Of a stretch of 6,250 bases of DNA, positions 1 through 6,250 are shown in pieces (positions within the stretch are counted from its first letter, which is position 1; each line of letters opens with the position of its first letter). This stretch comes from a virus. The position numbers and the translations under genes were made by a program. The stretch lies in the IMG/VR virus record IMGVR_UViG_3300045988_001136, positions 1 to 6,250 of that record. One strand, given 5' to 3'. Below the pieces are notes generated by a model, which worked only from the letters and a program-made list of their open reading frames with translations, ran no database searches and was not told where the DNA came from.

Positions 1-77
1 ACGTCTCCTGTTCCTTTCTTTGCTACAGATGTTTCTTCATCTAATACACTACCTGTTGGTTCTACTCTCCGTGTTGA
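1..77. repeat. Terminal redundancy copy 1 (identical to 6174..6250); marks circular genome closure
   Basis: Base-by-base comparison shows 77/77 identity with the window end. Confidence 0.97.
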
Positions 78-897
78 TTTGACGTCTTTACAATCTAAAT
101 TTACAGTTCTTGCCCTTCGTCAAGCTGAAGCCCTTCAGCGTTGGAAAGAAATCAGTCAGTCTGGTGATAGTGACTACCGCGAACAGATTCGTAAACATTT
201 TGGTGTGAATTTGCCTCAATCTCTTTCCAATATGTGTACTTATATTGGTGGTATTTCCCGTAACCTTGATATCAGTGAGGTTGTAAATAATAACCTTGCT
301 ACTGAAGATACTACTGCTGTTATTGCTGGTAAAGGTGTCGGTGCCGGTAATGGTTCTTTCACTTATACTACCAATGAGCACTGTGTTGTTATGTGTATTT
401 ATCATGCTGTTCCTCTGCTTGATTATACAATTACCGGTCAGGATGGTCAGCTTTTGGTAACTGATGCTGAGTCTCTCCCGATTCCTGAGTTTGATAATAT
501 CGGTATGGAAGTTCTTCCTATGACGCAAATTTTCAATTCTCCTAAAGCCTCTATTGTCAATTTGTTTAATGCAGGTTATAATCCCCGTTATTTTAATTGG
601 AAAACGAAGCTCGATGTTGTTAACGGAGCTTTTACTACTACTCTTAAGTCTTGGGTTTCTCCGGTTACCGCATCTCTTCTTTCCGGATGGTTCGGCTTTG
701 GTTATAATGAAGGCGATGTTAATAAGAATAATAAGGTTGTTTTGAATTATAAGTTCTTTAAGGTTAATCCTTCTGTACTTGACCCTATTTTTGGAGTTAG
801 TGCGGATTCTACTTGGGATACTGACCAGCTTTTGGTTAATTCCTATATCGGTTGCTATGTTGCTCGTAATTTATCTCGTGATGGTGTACCTTACTAA
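1..897 (+). CDS. VP1: Major capsid protein (VP1 / F-like), C-terminal 298 codons. The 5' end is cut by the window start and is continuous with 5226..6173 across the circular junction.
   Basis: Frame 1 is open from base 1 with no stop before TAA at 895..897. The TTG start at 79 in the ORF track is only the first start-like codon. Position 1 equals 6174, which is in frame with the ATG at 5226 (948 nt, 316 codons, upstream). T-ending codon bias is strong. The sequence (..LALRQAEALQRWKEISQSG.., ..YNPRYFNWK..) looks like the large capsid proteins of Bacteroidota-associated microviruses as I remember them. Confidence 0.93.
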   Translation, partial: TSPVPFFATDVSSSNTLPVGSTLRVDLTSLQSKFTVLALRQAEALQRWKEISQSGDSDYREQIRKHFGVNLPQSLSNMCTYIGGISRNLDISEVVNNNLATEDTTAVIAGKGVGAGNGSFTYTTNEHCVVMCIYHAVPLLDYTITGQDGQLLVTDAESLPIPEFDNIGMEVLPMTQIFNSPKASIVNLFNAGYNPRYFNWKTKLDVVNGAFTTTLKSWVSPVTASLLSGWFGFGYNEGDVNKNNKVVLNYKFFKVNPSVLDPIFGVSADSTWDTDQLLVNSYIGCYVARNLSRDGVPY

Positions 898-911
898 TTT
901 TGTTTTTGATT

Positions 912-1394
912 ATGATAGGAAAGTTTAATTCTTTGGACTGTCTGGAACAGGGTTCTGGACTTACCCCTAATGTTGAGCCTGATGCTTTTGCTGTTGCTCC
1001 TCAATTTGATTCTACGGAGGAACTTCGTGTAGAGATTGATGATACTGACGAAACTCGTCCGGTTCGTTATACCTCTGACGTTCGTTTAATTCTTCATAAT
1101 AAGGATTTAGCCTCTCGTGCTGGGCTTTCTGTTGCTTCCAAATTTGGTCAAAGTAAACAGACTGTATCTCAGATTCAACAGCTTATGGATTTAATGTCTG
1201 ATTCTGACCTTTTGGCAACGGTTCGTTCTCGATATGTTCAGTCTCCTTCTGAAATTATTGCCTGGTCAAAAGAACTTATTGCTCGTGCTGAAGCTCTTAA
1301 TCATGAGGCTCAGATTTTGGTTGATGCTGAAACTGCTAAACAAGAGGCAGAACAAGCGGCTGCTGCTCCCGCTGATGCTGCTTCCTCTGAATAA
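912..1394 (+). CDS. Small acidic protein (160 aa) between the capsid and pilot genes; putative internal scaffolding protein (VP3-like). The function is inferred from position only.
   Basis: ATG at 912 lies in frame with the TTG at 900 listed in the track. T3 codon bias matches the other genes. The TAA stop (1392..1394) overlaps the VP2 ATG by 1 nt (TAATG), which suggests translational coupling. The protein is acidic with an Ala/Gln/Glu-rich C-terminal tail. I recognise no diagnostic motif, so coding confidence is high but functional confidence is about 0.4. Confidence 0.75.
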   Translation: MIGKFNSLDCLEQGSGLTPNVEPDAFAVAPQFDSTEELRVEIDDTDETRPVRYTSDVRLILHNKDLASRAGLSVASKFGQSKQTVSQIQQLMDLMSDSDLLATVRSRYVQSPSEIIAWSKELIARAEALNHEAQILVDAETAKQEAEQAAAAPADAASSE

Positions 1395-2461
1395 TGGGTC
1401 TTCTTGGTTCAATCGCTGGTGGTCTCCTTGGTATTGGTTCTTCTGCTATTCAGAATTCACAGAATAGACAGAATGTCCGGGAGACCAACCAGATGAACTA
1501 TAGGATAAATCAGATGAACAATCAGTTTAATGAGCGTATGGCTATGCAGCAGCGCGATTTCCAGGAAAATATGTGGAATAAGGAGAATGAGTATAATACT
1601 GCCTCCGCGCAACGTCAACGCCTTGAAGAAGCTGGTTTAAATCCTTATCTGATGATGAACGGTGGTTCTGCTGGTACTGCTCAGTCTGTTGGTGCTGGTG
1701 CTTCTGCCTCTTCTGCCGGTTCTGCTGTTATGCAGCCTTTTCAGGCTGATTATTCAGGCATTAGTTCTTCTATTGGTAATATCTTTCAGTATGAGCTTAT
1801 GCAATCTCAAAAGTCTCAATTGCAAGGTGCTACGCAACTTGCTGATGCCAAGGCTATGGAGACTCTTTCTAATATTGATTGGGGTAAGCTTACCGATGAA
1901 ACTCGTGATTATTTGAAGTCCACCGGATTGGCTCGTGCTCGGCTTGGTTATGCCAAGGAACAGCAGGAAGTTAGCAACATGGCTATGACAGGTCTTGTTC
2001 TGCGCGCCCAGCATTCTGGTATGCTTCTTGATAATGAAGCTAAAACTGTTATGAATAAGTATCTTGACCAGCAACAGCAGCTTGACTTGAATGTCAAGGC
2101 TGCGGATTATTACCAGCGTATGGCTTCTGGTCATCTTTCTTATGCTGAAGCTAAAAAGGCTATAGCTGAGGAAGCTTTGGCTGCTGCTCGTGCGCGTGGT
2201 CAGAATATTGCTAATAAGGTTGCGGATCGTATTGCCGAGTCTCAAATTGCTGCCAATATTGCAGCTAATGAGTCTACTGCTGCTTTTCATAAAGAGGAAC
2301 TCAGATTAGGTCTTCCTCAAGATAATGCGCGTAGTAAAAATATTGAGGAATGGTACCGTTCTCGTAATGAAGGTAAGAGATATAAGTATTATGATACTGA
2401 TAAGGCAGTTCATTATGGTACTGCTATTGGTAATACTGTAGGAAACTTTATGCCCTGGTAG
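1394..2461 (+). CDS. VP2: Minor capsid / DNA pilot protein (VP2, H-like), 355 aa
   Basis: The N-terminus is Gly-rich and hydrophobic (MGLLGSIAGGLLGIGSS). The block AQRQRLEEAGLNPYLMM is characteristic of microvirus VP2 proteins. A Gly/Ala/Ser low-complexity linker follows, then a long Ala/Gln/Glu-rich helical region compatible with a coiled-coil pilot tube. The gene ends at TAG 2459..2461. Confidence 0.9.
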   Translation: MGLLGSIAGGLLGIGSSAIQNSQNRQNVRETNQMNYRINQMNNQFNERMAMQQRDFQENMWNKENEYNTASAQRQRLEEAGLNPYLMMNGGSAGTAQSVGAGASASSAGSAVMQPFQADYSGISSSIGNIFQYELMQSQKSQLQGATQLADAKAMETLSNIDWGKLTDETRDYLKSTGLARARLGYAKEQQEVSNMAMTGLVLRAQHSGMLLDNEAKTVMNKYLDQQQQLDLNVKAADYYQRMASGHLSYAEAKKAIAEEALAAARARGQNIANKVADRIAESQIAANIAANESTAAFHKEELRLGLPQDNARSKNIEEWYRSRNEGKRYKYYDTDKAVHYGTAIGNTVGNFMPW

Positions 2462-2486
2462 TATTTTTTTTGTTTATTGTGTGTTT

Positions 2487-2520
2487 ACCCGGCTCGTAGT
2501 GATACGCGTCGGGTTTTGTT
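2487..2520 (+). terminator. Rho-independent-terminator-like hairpin downstream of VP2
   Basis: ACCCGGCTCGT (2487..2497) pairs with ACGCGTCGGGT (2504..2514): an 11-bp stem with one G-T wobble and one mismatch, and a 6-nt loop AGTGAT. It is followed directly by TTTGTTG, and T2514 extends this into a TTTT run. It sits 26 nt after the last stop codon of the gene string. Confidence 0.6.
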
Positions 2521-2539
2521 GCTTGTAGTAACTTTTGGC

Positions 2540-2558
2540 AACCGCGCGAAGCGTGGTT
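2540..2558 (+). other. Hairpin with an exact d(GCGAAGC) mini-hairpin core
   Basis: In AACCGCGC-GAA-GCGTGGTT, 2540..2547 pairs with 2551..2558 (8 bp including one G-T), with a GAA triloop at 2548..2550. The core GCGAAGC is 2546..2552. Confidence 0.7.
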
Positions 2559-2741
2559 ATACACCCCCTGAATTCCGGGAGACTCTGTCGACTGAAATCA
2601 GAGCCGTTAGGCTATAGTACTGCCTTCCTTGAAGCTTGATGCTTGCAACGCGTAAGCAATTTCCCGGAGAGCTTCTCTCTGCCGTCGCTGCTATACCTCT
2701 AAAATATTATTTGACGAAGTCTACATGAGTTTGCCCGAAGG

Positions 2742-2766
2742 GAAAGCTATTTACCTCATAGCTTTC
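2742..2766 (+). other. Perfect 9-bp stem / 7-nt loop hairpin (GAAAGCTAT-TTACCTC-ATAGCTTTC)
   Basis: 2742..2750 is the exact reverse complement of 2758..2766, and the loop TTACCTC is 2751..2757. It lies in non-coding DNA. Confidence 0.75.
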
Positions 2767-2847
2767 AGTCTCCCCCTTGTCTTATATACGCAAACTCACA
2801 GACCAGCCCGTCACCCATATAGCTTATTGTTTATTTATGTTAATAAT

Positions 2848-2859
2848 ATATGCGCATAT
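2848..2859. repeat. 12-bp perfect palindrome ATATGCGCATAT abutting or overlapping the -33 promoter element
   Basis: The sequence ATATGCGCATAT equals its own reverse complement. Its last base is the first T of the TTTG -33 box (2859..2862). Confidence 0.8.
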
Positions 2860-2891
2860 TTGTCTTTTTCAAATTTTCATTTATATCTTTG
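2859..2891 (+). promoter_or_regulatory. Bacteroidota-type (sigma-ABfr-like) promoter: -33 TTTG and -7 TAnnTTTG
   Basis: TTTG at 2859..2862 is separated by a 21-nt spacer from TATCTTTG at 2884..2891, which matches the published Bacteroides consensus TTTG / TAnnTTTG. It lies about 43 nt upstream of the first ATG (2934) of a seven-gene, same-strand string that runs round the circle to the terminator at 2487. Confidence 0.55.
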
Positions 2892-2933
2892 CATTGTTTT
2901 TAAAATCAATGTATAATTAAAATTTCAAGTGTT

Positions 2934-3107
2934 ATGGAAAAGTATTATTTGTGTTCTGTTCAATCAAAGGTTAATCCTAATCAGAATGAAACCATTCTTG
3001 TTCCGGTTGATGAAGTCTCTGAATTTGTTTCTACTAATCTTCGTCCGGACTGCGTGCTTATTATTTCTCATTGTTCAACTTTTAAAGCTATCCCTAATGA
3101 AAAGTGA
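2934..3107 (+). CDS. Hypothetical protein, 57 aa (MEKYYLCSVQSKVNPNQNETILVPVDEVSEFVSTNLRPDCVLIISHCSTFKAIPNEK); first gene after the promoter
   Basis: ATG at 2934, TGA at 3105..3107. It is absent from the ORF track, probably because it falls below the length cut-off. Its third codon positions are overwhelmingly T, like the confirmed genes, whereas the overlapping track ORF 2929..3186 is read in the +1 frame across this stretch. I recognise no motif. Confidence 0.6.
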   Translation: MEKYYLCSVQSKVNPNQNETILVPVDEVSEFVSTNLRPDCVLIISHCSTFKAIPNEK

Positions 3108-3186
3108 AACTAAATCTAAAATCTGGTCTGCTATTATTGCAGCTGCTGTCAGTCTTCTTACGTCTATTGCCCAAATTTTTTCGTAA
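3097..3186 (+). CDS. 29-aa single-pass membrane peptide (MKSETKSKIWSAIIAAAVSLLTSIAQIFS); candidate holin-like or lysis-accessory peptide
   Basis: ATG at 3097 overlaps the upstream ORF by 11 nt, and TAA is at 3184..3186, 3 nt before the peptidase ATG. The N-terminus is charged (KSETKSK), followed by an uninterrupted stretch of about 20 hydrophobic residues. T3 codon bias is retained. This is the only part of track ORF 2929..3186 that looks genuinely coding. Confidence 0.55.
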   Translation: MKSETKSKIWSAIIAAAVSLLTSIAQIFS

Positions 3187-3189
3187 ATC

Positions 3190-3498
3190 ATGAACCCTGA
3201 ATTAATGAAATTTGTTGAGTGGCTTCTCTGCCGGAATATTCATTTTACTGTCACTTCAGCTCTTCGTACCAAGAAGCAGAATGAGGCATGTAATGGTTCT
3301 GATGATTCTCAACATTTGTCTGGAGATGCTATTGATTTAAAACCTTTGGAACTTTCAGTTGACTCTTTAGTCTCTGTAATTAAAGGTTCTCCTTTCAAGT
3401 TTGACCAACTTATAAAGTATCGGACTTTTGTTCATGTTTCCTTTGCTCGTGTTCGCAAGCCTCGTCAAATGGAACTTAATTTTACTGATAGAAAATGA
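3190..3498 (+). CDS. Peptidase M15-family (VanY / D-Ala-D-Ala carboxypeptidase-like) zinc peptidoglycan hydrolase, 102 aa; putative endolysin
   Basis: The motif string TSALRTKKQN..SQHLSGDAID..FVHVS fits the M15 signature (S-x-x-R, then S-x-H-x-x-G-x-A-x-D, i.e. H-x6-D, then a distal His). The predicted Zn ligands are H42 (3313..3315), D49 (3334..3336) and H82 (3433..3435). There is no obvious signal peptide. The TGA stop overlaps the VP4 ATG (ATGA at 3495..3498). Confidence 0.85.
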   Translation: MNPELMKFVEWLLCRNIHFTVTSALRTKKQNEACNGSDDSQHLSGDAIDLKPLELSVDSLVSVIKGSPFKFDQLIKYRTFVHVSFARVRKPRQMELNFTDRK

Positions 3499-5198
3499 TT
3501 ACCAAGGAATTGCAGAATAAATTAGTGACTCGTTGTCAGCATCCTCGTACGGTTGTTAACAAGTATACGCATGAGTCTGTTCTTGTGTCTTGTGGTTCTT
3601 GTCCTTCTTGTCTTCTTCGTCGTTCCGGAATTCAGACAAATTTGCTTACTACTTATTCTGCTCAATTCCGTTATGTTTATTTTGTTACTCTTACTTATGC
3701 TCCTCGTTTCCTTCCTACTTTGGAGGTTTCGATTATTGAAACTTGCACGGACGATATTGCGGACGTGCCCTGTGTTCCCGATATTAATGACTTGGACGCT
3801 GGTGACCCTAATACTTATTTGTTTGGTTTTCGTAGCGTTCCTCGTTCCGCTTCTGTTAAGTTGAAAAATTCTACCGTCGAACGCACTTTTAAGGACCCTG
3901 AAGTTCGGTTTACTTATGCTATGAAACCCAAGGAGCTTATTTCTATTTTTGGAAAGATTAAGCATAATGTTCCCAATAGGATTCCTTATATTTGTAATCG
4001 TGATCTTGATTTGTTTTTGAAACGTTTAAGAAGTTATTACCCAGATGAAAAATTACGTTACTACGCTGTATCAGAATTCTGCCCTACCAGTTTCCGCCCG
4101 CATTGGCATTTGTTATTGTTTTCCAATTCCGAGCGATTCTCGCAAACTGTTTGTGAAAATGTATCTAAAGCTTGGTCTTACGGACGTTATGATGCGTCAT
4201 TGTCGAGAGGATTCGCAGCTCCGTATGTTGCGTCGTATGTTAATAGTTTTGTCGCTTTACCCGACTTTTATACTCAAATGCCAAAAGTGGTGCGACCTAA
4301 ATCCTTCCATTCCATTGGATTTACAGAATCAAATCTCTTTCCTCGAAAGGTACGAATTGCCGAAATTGATGAAGTTGCCGATAAGTGCCTTAATGGAGTC
4401 CGCGTTGAGCGCAATGGATATTTTCATACAATTAAACCTACTTGGCCGTATCTCCTTCGATTATTCCCCCGATTTTCGGACCCTATTCGTAAACTTCCAT
4501 CGAGTATTTACCAATTATTATATTCTGCGTTCACTGCGCCCCAACGAGTCGTTCACAGCGGATGTGCAGATTTAACTTGTGACCCTTTTAACGAGAATAC
4601 TCCATTTAAACAAAGTATTTTGTCTTTTTGTAAACAGTATTTAAATTATGTAGATAATTATGGAAAAAGAAATGACGAGCAAAATATTCTTGCACCTCAA
4701 GAACGTTTACCGCATAGTGATATTCTCATTCTTTCTGAATGTCGTTTGTACGATGGTGTTGATTTGGAAGTTACTCATCGTCTCTCCCGCGTATACCGCT
4801 TTTTCCTCGGAATTGCGAAATTTATTCGAACATATTCAACAGACGGATGTTCAGAATTTTTCTGGTCCAGCGGCACTTCTGGAGGAGAGCTCTTTGGACG
4901 AGAAAGGTTCCTGCGCATTATCTCCGAGAAAATAGTTAATTTTTGGAATCGTTATGATTACAACCGTCTTGTAGATTTCTATCAAACTTTGGAAGATTCC
5001 AATGATAAGGATTTGGTAGACTTTGAGCTTCGTAATTATACCTTCCGTTATAATAGATCTGTTTGCGATAAGGTAAAACCTTACCATGAATTACCTCTTG
5101 TTCGTCGTTTGGCTGCCGCTTCATTGATGAAATGTCGGGATAAGGTCAAACACAAGAAGGTTAATGATTCGTTTGGTATTTTCTCTTATCATGACTGA
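3495..5198 (+). CDS. VP4: Rolling-circle replication initiation protein (VP4 / A-like HUH endonuclease), 567 aa
   Basis: There is an N-terminal Cys cluster (C14, then CGSCPSC at aa 32..38). RCR motif I is FVTLTY (3681..3698). Motif II (HUH) is RPHWHLLLF, with HWH at 4101..4109. Motif III is YVASYVNS (4224..4247), with two Tyr spaced Y-x-x-x-Y, very close to the phiX174 A protein YVAKYVNK as I recall it. Confidence 0.93.
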   Translation: MITKELQNKLVTRCQHPRTVVNKYTHESVLVSCGSCPSCLLRRSGIQTNLLTTYSAQFRYVYFVTLTYAPRFLPTLEVSIIETCTDDIADVPCVPDINDLDAGDPNTYLFGFRSVPRSASVKLKNSTVERTFKDPEVRFTYAMKPKELISIFGKIKHNVPNRIPYICNRDLDLFLKRLRSYYPDEKLRYYAVSEFCPTSFRPHWHLLLFSNSERFSQTVCENVSKAWSYGRYDASLSRGFAAPYVASYVNSFVALPDFYTQMPKVVRPKSFHSIGFTESNLFPRKVRIAEIDEVADKCLNGVRVERNGYFHTIKPTWPYLLRLFPRFSDPIRKLPSSIYQLLYSAFTAPQRVVHSGCADLTCDPFNENTPFKQSILSFCKQYLNYVDNYGKRNDEQNILAPQERLPHSDILILSECRLYDGVDLEVTHRLSRVYRFFLGIAKFIRTYSTDGCSEFFWSSGTSGGELFGRERFLRIISEKIVNFWNRYDYNRLVDFYQTLEDSNDKDLVDFELRNYTFRYNRSVCDKVKPYHELPLVRRLAAASLMKCRDKVKHKKVNDSFGIFSYHD

Positions 5199-5225
5199 TA
5201 ATGTTTAATTTTAAAATGTTTTTTT

Positions 5226-6250
5226 ATGGCTTCTTACACTGGAATGTCCAATCTTCAAAATCATCCTCACCGTTCTGGATTTGATATTGGACGTAAAAAT
5301 GCGTTTACTGCGAAAGTTGGTGAGCTTCTCCCGGTTTATTGGGATATTTCTATGCCTGGTGATAAGTATAAGCTCAACGTTGAGTATTTCACCCGTACTC
5401 AGCCCGTTGAAACTTCTGCTTATACCCGTTTACGTGAATACTTTGATTTCTATGCTGTTCCGTTACGTCTTCTTTGGAAGTCTGCACCTTCCGTATTGAC
5501 CCAAATGCAGGATATCAATCAGATTCAAGCGTTGTCTTTTACTCAAAACTTGTCTCTTGGTTCTTATCTACCTTCTATTACTTTGAGTCGGTTGTCCACT
5601 TCTTTGTTTTATTTGAACTCTAAAGCCGACCCTGGTTCTTCTGCTGCTCAGACAAACATGTTTGGCTTTTACCGTGCTGATATGGCTTTTAAGCTTCTTA
5701 GTTATCTTGGTTATGGAAACTTTATTAAAGCTGCTCCTTCTTCCGATAATCGTTGGTGGTCTACAACTGTAAAGTCTTCTGCCTCGTCTTCATATACTCA
5801 GCTGTATATTCAGAATAATTATGTAAACATTTTCCCTATTCTTGCTTATCAGAAAATTTACCAGGATTTTTTCCGTTGGTCTCAATGGGAAAGAGCTAAT
5901 CCTTCTTCTTATAATGTTGATTATTATACAGGAACCTCTCCCGATATAGTGGCCTCTTTCCCTTCTTCTACTTCTGATTATTGGAAATCTGATACAATGT
6001 TTGACCTCAAATATTGTAATTGGAACAAAGATATGTTAATGGGTGTTCTCCCGAATTCTCAATTTGGTGATGTTGCTGTTATTGATATTGATAATTCCGG
6101 TAAGCCTGATGTTTTTTTGGGACTTGGTAATTCCAATAGCAAGGTAGGTGTAGCTTCTGCTGTTACTTCTAAAACGTCTCCTGTTCCTTTCTTTGCTACA
6201 GATGTTTCTTCATCTAATACACTACCTGTTGGTTCTACTCTCCGTGTTGA
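5226..6250 (+). CDS. VP1: Major capsid protein (VP1 / F-like), N-terminal part. It is open at the window end and continues at position 1 through the circular junction.
   Basis: From the ATG at 5226 I read the frame by hand with no stop through 6250: MASYTGMSNLQNHPHRSGFDIGRKNAFTAKVGELLPVYWDISMPGDKYKLNVEYFTRTQPVETSAYTRLREYFDFYAVPLRLLWK... This is the canonical microvirus capsid N-terminus. It is missing from the ORF track because no stop lies inside the window. Confidence 0.93.
   Translation, partial: MASYTGMSNLQNHPHRSGFDIGRKNAFTAKVGELLPVYWDISMPGDKYKLNVEYFTRTQPVETSAYTRLREYFDFYAVPLRLLWKSAPSVLTQMQDINQIQALSFTQNLSLGSYLPSITLSRLSTSLFYLNSKADPGSSAAQTNMFGFYRADMAFKLLSYLGYGNFIKAAPSSDNRWWSTTVKSSASSSYTQLYIQNNYVNIFPILAYQKIYQDFFRWSQWERANPSSYNVDYYTGTSPDIVASFPSSTSDYWKSDTMFDLKYCNWNKDMLMGVLPNSQFGDVAVIDIDNSGKPDVFLGLGNSNSKVGVASAVTSKTSPVPFFATDVSSSNTLPVGSTLRV
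6174..6250. repeat. Terminal redundancy copy 2 (identical to 1..77); unit genome length 6,173 nt
   Basis: Base-by-base comparison shows 77/77 identity with the window start. The repeat is internal to the VP1 reading frame and in phase. Confidence 0.97.

Follow-up and report, generated by a model that had tools for sequence, protein, structure and literature searches.

E1, an exchangeable hairpin cassette of microvirus genomes and candidate complementary-strand origin

Introduction

The single-strand origins ssoA, ssoT, ssoU and ssoW of rolling-circle plasmids and the minus origins of filamentous phages are orientation-dependent, folded single-strand signals that are read by host enzymes. The sso elements (~150-250 nt) are non-essential yet strongly advantageous, and are swapped as cassettes between replicons with unrelated Rep proteins. 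Within the Microviridae, the primase-dependent origin of G4, St-1, alpha3 and phiK (Bullavirinae) is found on the viral strand, where it occupies a non-coding gap that follows the structural genes, and depends on the host but not on the phage Rep; the annotated origin of G4 is a 136-nt intergenic cluster of three hairpins, including GCGAAAGC. Here we describe E1, a structured cassette at about 2527-2700 (+ strand) of a 6,250-nt stretch of viral DNA (IMG/VR record IMGVR_UViG_3300045988_001136, positions 1 to 6,250; hereafter the window), as a candidate minus-strand origin or single-strand initiation signal of uncultured microviruses.

Two lines of published work bear on such elements. A 2026 review by the discoverers of the motifs describes GCGNAGC and GCGNNAGC DNA mini-hairpins as extraordinarily stable and their RNA versions as far less stable, and reports that these motifs are located at the complementary-strand origins of three phages (G4, St-1 and alpha3) and in ssiA of RSF1010 (PMC13037366). 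In other uncultured microviruses, intergenic hairpins with compensatory changes have been tentatively tied to negative-strand synthesis (PMC9865509). In the literature we found no description of E1, of its neighbour E2, of the cassette behaviour of E1 or of differences in strand polarity among Microviridae.

Results

A composite non-coding gap

The window is a single circular microvirus genome of 6173 nt (positions 1-77 recur at 6174-6250 as a 77-nt terminal overlap), with every gene on the + strand. Between the pilot-protein open reading frame (ORF), which stops at 2461, and the following ORF, which begins at 2934, lies the 472-nt gap (7.6%) singled out by the original prediction. The nearest GenBank record, Dulem virus 236, has a gap 88.7% identical to that of the window and an annotated gene layout that agrees with it. 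The high G+C content ascribed to 2521-2700 was borne out (51.7% vs 39.4% in the remaining genome), whereas the T bias said to be lost there is only weakened, with T dropping from 35.9% to 27.8% and still exceeding A (20.6%). The whole gap is more stable than shuffled sequences, both as DNA (z = -4.4) and as RNA (z = -2.6).

Along the + strand, the gap contains a terminator-like hairpin, E1, a second structured segment (2708-2806) with the mini-hairpin H0 and E2, a probable attachment region and a Bacteroidota-type promoter. The original prediction had treated ~340 nt of it as one module with a role at the DNA level; our analysis backs the DNA-level role but divides the region into E1, E2 and the attachment site. 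The best explanation of the gap is a composite, non-coding, cis-acting control region of the genome that acts mainly as DNA.

E1 is built from covarying hairpins

E1 runs from AGTAAC to GCTATACCTCTAAAATAT (2527-2706, + strand) and has near its 5' end an 8-bp hairpin, P1 (AACCGCGC-GAA-GCGTGGTT; 2540-2558, + strand), which is constant in all E1 types. P1 holds a canonical DNA mini-hairpin (GCGAAGC, 2546-2552) and an invariant G.T pair. The pairing of AACCGCGC with GCGTGGTT, proposed earlier from the single sequence, covaries: 100% of the alignment cells are paired, C-G is replaced by T-A in 6 of 42 sequences, and more double changes occur in L134. Its loop is GTA in 52 cases, GAA in 23 and GCA in 3, with GGA in mar40 and L078, so that every N is seen in GCG-N-AGC while the G and the A of the loop stay fixed.

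Next comes P2 (2568-2601, + strand), a bulged hairpin of the form CTGA(A)TTCCGG ... CTGAAATCAG with tandem G.A/A.G pairs. The window has GAC-TCT-GTC at the P2 apex, where many relatives have C(GTTA)G or C(GTA)G. Both partners have changed in seven of the 11 P2 pairs, and even with type B shifted in register, 92.8% of cells are paired. Taken together, P1 and P2 have 95.9% of cells paired and eight doubly changed pairs, a level reached by 0 of 500 shuffles, while slid controls gave 30-42%. P3 (AGCC-GTTA-GGCT; 2602-2613, + strand) is a mini-hairpin whose loop is GNA or GNNA in relatives and whose stem covaries to AACC..GGTT (L007), AGCT..AGCT (L042) and ATTCAC-GAA-GTGAAT (marmot viruses).

These helices displace part of the structure first proposed. 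Five internal pairings had been put forward for the gap; covariation confirms two of them, P1 and the hairpin at 2742-2766 in E2 (below), and leaves three unsupported. CTCTG/CAGAG (2583-2587 with 2599-2603) is ousted by the covariation-backed helix 2568-2578 with 2592-2601, and GCTTGC/GTAAGC (2641-2657) undergoes uncompensated changes in relatives. The window does contain the 7-bp long-range pairing of 2574-2580 with 2662-2668, but covariation does not support it; the 5' arm falls within P2, and many relatives, with CCCTCTAAT variants, have lost the 3' arm.

A 4-bp closing helix of the E1 core, P0, was predicted by RNAalifold between 2536-2539 (TGGC) and 2687-2690 (GCTG) on the + strand. It shows only one-sided pyrimidine changes opposite G (30 C-G and 19 T.G; 14 G-C and 35 G.T), and is therefore compatible with the data, not proven. 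The variable core is flanked by a direct repeat, TAWACMCC, with one box directly 3' of P1 (TATACACC, 2558-2565, + strand) and a second copy just 3' of the closing helix (TATACCTC, 2692-2699, + strand); in the alignments both are kept in E1 types A-D. Downstream of P3, a conserved and mostly unpaired tract (ATAGTACTGCC ... AGCTTGATG ... GCAACGCGTAAGC; 2614-2660, + strand) contains invariant and near-invariant columns with no supported pairing and might, speculatively, be a recognition or priming site. A CTG at 2620-2622 sits 6 nt 3' of P3 and is not invariant; G4 has a CTG 3' of its hairpin I. An optional hairpin, P5 (GAGAG-CTT-CTCTC; 2667-2679, + strand), is present in the window and many relatives and is swapped for an unpaired pyrimidine tract (CCCTCTAATCTC) in others. 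At least four E1 types (A-D) can be told apart; all have P1, the two boxes and a P2-like hairpin, and they differ between these.

We found no coding signal in the gap: frame-breaking indels of 1, 4 and 7 nt in relatives, together with the paired substitutions, rule out the ORFs 2477-2617 and 2725-2916, which lie across E1 and E2, as genes. In Dulem virus 257 (L005), a GenBank 'hypothetical protein' (3197-3400) spans the 3' part of E1 together with E2, its counterpart in the window being ORF 2725-2916. Because of the indel and covariation pattern we do not take it for a gene, and GenBank calls of this kind within the gap are probably spurious.

The fold belongs to one DNA strand

Across the E1 helices, 163 cells hold G.T and only 4 hold A.C, and two G.T pairs are invariant; this imbalance assigns the fold to the + strand of the window. 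The loops are of the DNA type. On the + strand of the genome, all four C(GNA)G or C(GNNA)G hairpins are confined to 2545-2742, namely GCGAAGC in P1 (2546-2552), CCGTTAGG in P3 (2604-2611), GACGAAGTC in H0 (2713-2721) and CCCGAAGGG in the E2 hairpin H1 (2734-2742), and the P2 apex adds a further one in many relatives. Over 78 genomes, the module has 13.5 such hairpins per kb and the remaining sequence 0.15 per kb (~90-fold). This clear signal comes from C-G-closed hairpins only, as genome-wide counts of generic GNA/TNC hairpins were too noisy. A mini-hairpin with the same loop type as in E1 and E2 (CCCC-GAA-GGGG) also occurs in phiX174 (L152, 427-437; record ~4326-4336), immediately after the viral-strand origin.

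E1 is widespread in microviruses and moves as a cassette

E1 and E2 are conserved, with compensatory base changes, in more than 100 microvirus genomes. By blastn, 15 phage records in GenBank contain the gap. A motif of 26 nt taken from the first hairpin matched 45 IMG/VR contigs, all microvirus-sized, and a 23-nt version matched 77 metagenome contigs, of which about 70 are real, three are chance matches inside a cellular gene and three are chimeras. A covariance model recovered E1 in 19 of another 23 close relatives, all with a Rep of 74% identity or more. Outside microviruses, two scans of 185,579 bacterial and archaeal species genomes, one with the P1 motif and one with the E2 motif, returned no match, and no homologue turned up among 72,556 plasmids. 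Nor did cmscan of the whole window at E <= 10 find an Rfam match inside 2472-2933, where the original prediction had left room for a separately transcribed structured RNA; a sub-threshold atoC match (2364-2471) only touches the gap edge. ARAGORN found no tRNA or tmRNA in the gap.

The cassette character of E1 emerges from the comparison of two lineages. Their E1 copies are 76-94% identical, while their Reps match at 23% over 86 residues; such high identity beside barely alignable Reps argues that E1 moves as a cassette. In the marmot viruses, each lineage has its closest E1 in the other lineage. At least three transfers of E1 can be counted (type A, type B, marmot type), and all of them put it on the T-rich strand.

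Orientation of E1 follows the T-rich strand

In ~110 genomes with a T-rich coding strand, including the window, E1 lies on the gene strand. By contrast, it is antisense to all genes in each of the nine A-rich-coding genomes that carry it (mar45, mar40, L035, L078, L084, L104, L127, L134 and L136). In this A-rich lineage the coding strand has A at 0.41-0.45 and T at 0.18-0.19, whereas T is ~0.36 in window-like genomes. Third codon positions of mar45 are 47-52% A and its non-coding region is 46% T on the E1 strand, which indicates a strand-wide skew. Since near-identical E1 cassettes suggest shared hosts, the opposite codon-position skews are hard to attribute to host codon usage.

The A-rich-coding genomes have a second non-coding region with an invariant TACTTGATA...TGCGTA, read on the T-rich strand and thus antisense to the genes (e.g. 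L135 3966-4105, minus strand; L078 ~540-600). Antisense TACTTGATA occurs together with a coding-strand A content of 41-45% in L134-L151, L002 (mar45), L008 (mar40), L035, L078, L084 and L104. TACTTGATA matches the annotated viral-strand origin of phiX174 (caacttg/atattaataac, viral strand). Related motifs are found in Chp2, where the loop of a 14-bp hairpin between genes reads ACTTGAT on the coding strand, and in Dulem 262, with ACTTGAT ~90 nt upstream of its E1; the exact ACTTGATA is present in the A-rich lineage, Dulem 262 and Chp2 and absent from the window. If TACTTGATA is the nick site, Rep would displace and package the T-rich strand in the A-rich lineage, and E1 would lie on the displaced strand in both lineages.

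On these grounds we tentatively propose, at somewhat less than even confidence, that the A-rich lineage (mar45, mar40, L078, L134-L151) packages the strand antisense to its genes and that minus origins are host-matched cassettes traded between distant microviruses. The phage collection contains no cultured relative of this lineage. For the cultured phiMH2K, which has an A/C-rich coding strand, a search for the origin motif gave nothing clear, which makes it unusable as a test case.

Several contigs seemed to break the orientation rule, and all could be explained. Fold-back chimeras account for L099 and L110, and chance matches of the 23-mer inside a cellular gene for L105, L107 and L124. In L066 (~3600-3700), microvirus sequence breaks off within P2 and continues in mid-gene into a truncated RND efflux transporter gene beside a TolC-like gene; this contig is probably a chimera of assembly, with illegitimate recombination as a possible origin of the junction. 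Five contigs of 7-27 kb (L059, L080, L087, L089 and L112) are concatemers or mixtures of related microviruses, and their two E1 copies each do not represent duplications.

E2, a second structured element beside E1

Between E1 and E2 lies H0 (GAC-GAA-GTC; 2713-2721, + strand), a mini-hairpin whose stem varies among GGC/GCC, GAC/GTC, GGT/ACC and GAT/ATC, two of its three pairs being doubly changed. E2 itself (2726-2798, + strand) is a three-way junction with the outer stem TGAGTTTG/CAAACTCA. It contains the mini-hairpin H1 (CCC-GAA-GGG; 2734-2742, + strand), the hairpin H2 (2743-2765, + strand) and a single-stranded tract with an invariant CTTGTCT (2776-2782, + strand). The perfect hairpin noted earlier at 2742-2766 covaries, with G-C replaced by T-A in 16 of 41 sequences. 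We found 96 distinct versions of E2; in its hairpins 98.4% of cells are paired and six pairs are doubly changed (reached by 0 of 500 shuffles), while compensated variation was never seen in the outer stem.

In the window lineage E2 is constant across E1 types A-C, and it is absent from the A-rich lineage, a distribution which suggests that E2 goes with the 567-aa Rep. Its layout of a hairpin, a ~10-nt spacer and then CTTG with an AT-rich run (2776-2789) is similar to that around ACTTGATA in Chp2, Dulem 262 and the A-rich lineage. The unpaired CTTG and AT-rich run after a hairpin and short spacer likewise recall the viral-strand origin of phiX174 (CAACTTG/ATATTAATAAC) and the Chp2 hairpin. The A-rich lineage has the exact ACTTGATAT of phiX174, whereas the E2 motif is only CTTGTCTTATATAC, and the phiX174 origin lies inside gene A while E2 lies in a gap. 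With moderate-to-low confidence, E2 may be a better candidate than E1 for the viral-strand origin nicked by Rep; nicking within E2 is a guess.

Predicted terminator, attachment region and promoter, and the genes

The terminator-like hairpin recognised earlier (2487-2520, + strand; ACCCGGC..GTCGGGT with an inner CGTA-GTGA-TACG hairpin, then TTTTGTT) folds as described in both the minimum-energy and the centroid structures of RNA and DNA. It has the G+C-rich hairpin and downstream T-run of an intrinsic terminator after a gene; a simple terminator scanner missed it owing to its internal loop. It is kept upstream of E1 in the T-rich lineage, with compensatory changes from G.T to G-C (L112) and from G.T to A-T (L119), and is predicted to close the transcription unit of the capsid, scaffold and pilot genes.

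Downstream of E2 lies a probable attachment (attP) region (2826-2858, + strand; TTATTTATGTTAATAATATATGCGCATA). In three prophages (L100, L119 and L074), the phage DNA ends 60-110 nt past E2 and is followed by the same bacterial flank, which codes for cellular proteins and includes a 376-aa Usp-like gene and BatC/TPR-like genes. These are three different microviruses at one bacterial locus (L100 5866-9334; L119 1-1757; L074 3626-4377), and from their junctions we place the attachment site shortly after E2. Free genomes L005-L007 likewise have the sequence that leads up to the junction, and the shared junction TTGTTAATTACAACCGTAAAG...GATATTGGATA recurs in the free Dulem 257, bajarodmic 1134 and bajarodmic 410. 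In the window, where the site has a different sequence, 2826-2858 is the probable attachment site by its position. Krupovic and Forterre (2011) described dif-like att sites of Bacteroidetes-associated microviruses (Alpavirinae), with additional dif-like sites near the prophage ends that they likened to CTX-phi (PMC3091885). Our case is similar in that three related chromosomal prophages have their junction in the same non-coding region after E2, and in that no integrase gene was noticed in their phage part, for which no systematic search was made; it differs in that the published work treats att sites without E1 or E2, and the window site resembles dif only partially.

Bacteroidota sigma-AB promoters have the consensus TTTG at -33 and TAnnTTTG at -7, with about 19-21 nt between them; this consensus is said to go back to Bayley and colleagues in 2000. 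The promoter recognised earlier at 2859-2891 (+ strand) matches this pattern, with TTTG (2859-2862) and TATCTTTG (2884-2891) spaced 21 nt apart, and occupies the same position in relatives. It lies upstream of a 57-aa ORF, a peptidase gene and the Rep gene, and we propose it as the predicted promoter for the early/replication genes. A sigma-70 scan of the gap gave only AT-rich sites at 2843-2917.

The genes, all on the + strand, are those for the major capsid protein (5227 across the junction to 897), the scaffold (900-1394), the pilot protein (1394-2461), the 57-aa ORF (2934-3107), an M15-type peptidase (3190-3498) and the 567-aa Rep (3495-5198). A small hydrophobic ORF (...SAIIAAAVSLLTSIAQIFS) may sit between the 57-aa ORF and the peptidase gene (3107-3186 and 2929-3186), overlapping an 85-aa GTG ORF in another frame.

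Discussion

E1 compared with known complementary-strand origins

By comparison with known systems, we read E1 with about even confidence as a minus-strand (complementary-strand) origin cassette. A DNA-level function is best supported because the fold is strand-specific, its loops are of the GNA/GNNA type, it is oriented with the T-rich strand, it is swapped as a cassette and no conserved promoter precedes it. The original prediction had put a complementary-strand origin first among its options, and this choice stands as the best-supported reading, although we infer the priming step itself. The checks that could have overturned that prediction were run and none did: relatives give no coding signal, the helices covary and Rfam yields no match.

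E1 shares with the G4-type origin its non-coding location, its place on the T-rich and presumably packaged strand (the one bearing the phiX-like nick motif where the two strands can be separated), and a cluster of stable hairpins including GCGNNAGC/GCGNAGC mini-hairpins; independence of the phage Rep and dependence on the host are proposed for it too. It differs in its length (~170 nt), its closing helix, its long invariant unpaired tracts, its at least four interchangeable types and its Bacteroidota-like host. A blastn-short comparison with the G4 genome gave 10-nt chance matches only. With the sso elements E1 has in common the orientation dependence, the Rep independence, the exchangeability and a similar size. 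TAGCGT, the CS-6 consensus of ssoA, occurs in P1 when the loop is GTA but is not conserved in E1, where GAA, GCA and GGA loops are common, and we recognised neither an RSB-like element in E1 nor homologues on plasmids. Given this lack of homology to G4 and to plasmid sso, E1 would be an analogue of these origins, not a member of either group.

In the mechanism we propose, the single strand that is packaged or displaced would fold at E1 into a tight group of short hairpins, whose very stable GNA/GNNA caps would not be expected to be melted by single-strand-binding protein (SSB). The host priming machinery would then read the fold, whether through primase, the enzyme used by G4, through RNA polymerase, which serves M13 and ssoA, or through a primosome like that of phiX174, and the primer laid there would allow the incoming single strand to be converted to the double-stranded replicative form. 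Being read by host factors would make E1 an interchangeable cassette among unrelated microviruses that share hosts. Beside it, the lineage-specific E2 would be nicked by the phage Rep, followed by the dif-like attachment site and the early/replication promoter.

Several observations weigh against this interpretation. E1 has no sequence similarity to the non-coding regions of G4, Chp2, SpV4 and phiMH2K. At ~170 nt and with long invariant unpaired tracts, it is larger and more sequence-constrained than the G4 origin, which might mean that it has a different protein partner. E1 of the window lineage is on the mRNA strand, and a read-through RNA copy could exist; G.U-tolerant substitution that is neutral between pyrimidines is also seen in RNA structures. 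The orientation argument depends on about three independent transfers and leans on ACTTGATA as the putative nick site, and for these uncultured viruses the packaged strand and priming are assigned by comparison. Finally, E1 is cleanly deleted (AGTAACTTTC|CGTCGCCGCTATACCC) from L135 (1-659, minus strand), a genome otherwise near L134 and L136, and 15 of 18 A-rich relatives are without E1. E1 is accordingly dispensable or replaceable and not strictly essential, unless the E1-less contigs are defective, as they may be.

Some A-rich genomes carry something else at the place of E1. L144 (5598-5967), L141 (1891-2387), L150 (409-977) and L142 (1075-1645) share a conserved GC-rich element on the minus strand, which is the T-rich one, with mini-hairpins including CGGCGAAGCCG, CGTCCGTTAGGACG, CGACCGTAGGTCG and GAGGCGCCGAGCCTC. 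It may be an alternative origin cassette, and the replacement of E1 by this element resembles the alternative sso types of rolling-circle plasmids.

Alternative readings of E1

E1 could instead be a structured non-coding RNA of the phage, such as a regulatory, anti-defence or 3' stability element, with its DNA features incidental. That the fold covaries and tolerates G.U, that the RNA fold of the gap beats shuffles and that long invariant unpaired tracts are typical of functional RNAs would all suit such an RNA, as would the position of E1 in the window lineage, where the strand bearing it is transcribed and the terminator before it may leak. We nevertheless consider it unlikely. Rfam offers no match at E <= 10, and a conserved TTTG/TAnnTTTG pair upstream of E1 is absent in both lineages, E1 of the window lineage directly following the terminator. 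C-G-closed GNA/GNNA loops with a free N are a signature of DNA mini-hairpins and are weak in RNA. In the A-rich lineage, moreover, E1 is antisense to every gene while its G.T pairs are still on the T-rich strand, and its orientation follows the strand of the phiX-like nick motif in 9 of 9 genomes. This tracking is what a single-stranded DNA signal predicts and an RNA gene does not.

A DNA signal need not serve priming. Together with E2, E1 might form a folded or accessory attachment site of the Xer type, as in CTX-phi, or a packaging or capsid-binding signal. The strand-specific fold on the presumed packaged strand would fit either role, and the short distance of 60-110 nt between E1-E2 and the prophage junction in the window lineage would fit the former, as would the additional dif-like sites near Bacteroidetes microvirus prophage ends that have been compared to CTX-phi (PMC3091885). 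An attP of the CTX-phi type would have a long forked hairpin of two inverted dif-like sites, whereas inverted repeats in the gap do not exceed 9 nt, a length reached in E2, and E1 of the A-rich lineage occurs without E2 and without a mapped attachment site. Exchange of the cassette across unrelated capsid and Rep proteins speaks against a packaging signal specific to a phage protein, and we know of no sequence-specific packaging signal in the Microviridae. Signals of this kind seem to us improbable, on a par with an RNA.

It is more doubtful still that E1 is the viral-strand origin, with Rep binding the TAWACMCC boxes and nicking the unpaired RCTTGAYG (2634-2641). The invariant CTTG in an unpaired tract does recall CAACTTG/ATA of phiX174, and E1 and the origin-like motif are on the same strand. 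Yet E1 is 76-94% identical beside Reps of 23% identity over 86 residues, the E1-bearing A-rich genomes already have a separate, invariant TACTTGATA region, and some genomes have E1 deleted or replaced, whereas the window lineage keeps E2 throughout.

A selfish, non-autonomous single-stranded-DNA mobile element (a PATE of the IS200/IS605 type) would explain the strand bias and horizontal spread of a cassette that sits in unrelated genomes, always on the presumed single strand, with a subterminal hairpin (P1) and repeated boxes close to both ends, but is most improbable given that E1 has no copy in the 185,579 species genomes or 72,556 plasmids, that all real matches are microviruses, that it is single-copy at a fixed intergenic place within a lineage, that its 3' end is missing a P1-like hairpin and that the endpoints of the L135 deletion are not at the repeated boxes.

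Implications

Priming of the incoming strand is known for a few coliphages only (phiX174, G4 and relatives) and not for the abundant Bacteroidota gut microviruses. As a complementary-strand origin, E1 would be a concrete, widespread and testable candidate with defined helices and loops, and the travel of such signals between unrelated microviruses could mark shared hosts. E1 would also serve as an internal marker of the packaged strand, and as such it predicts one large lineage with antisense packaging. If this is true, there would be 'negative-sense' Microviridae, and minus origins would be mobile in microviruses as sso elements are in plasmids.

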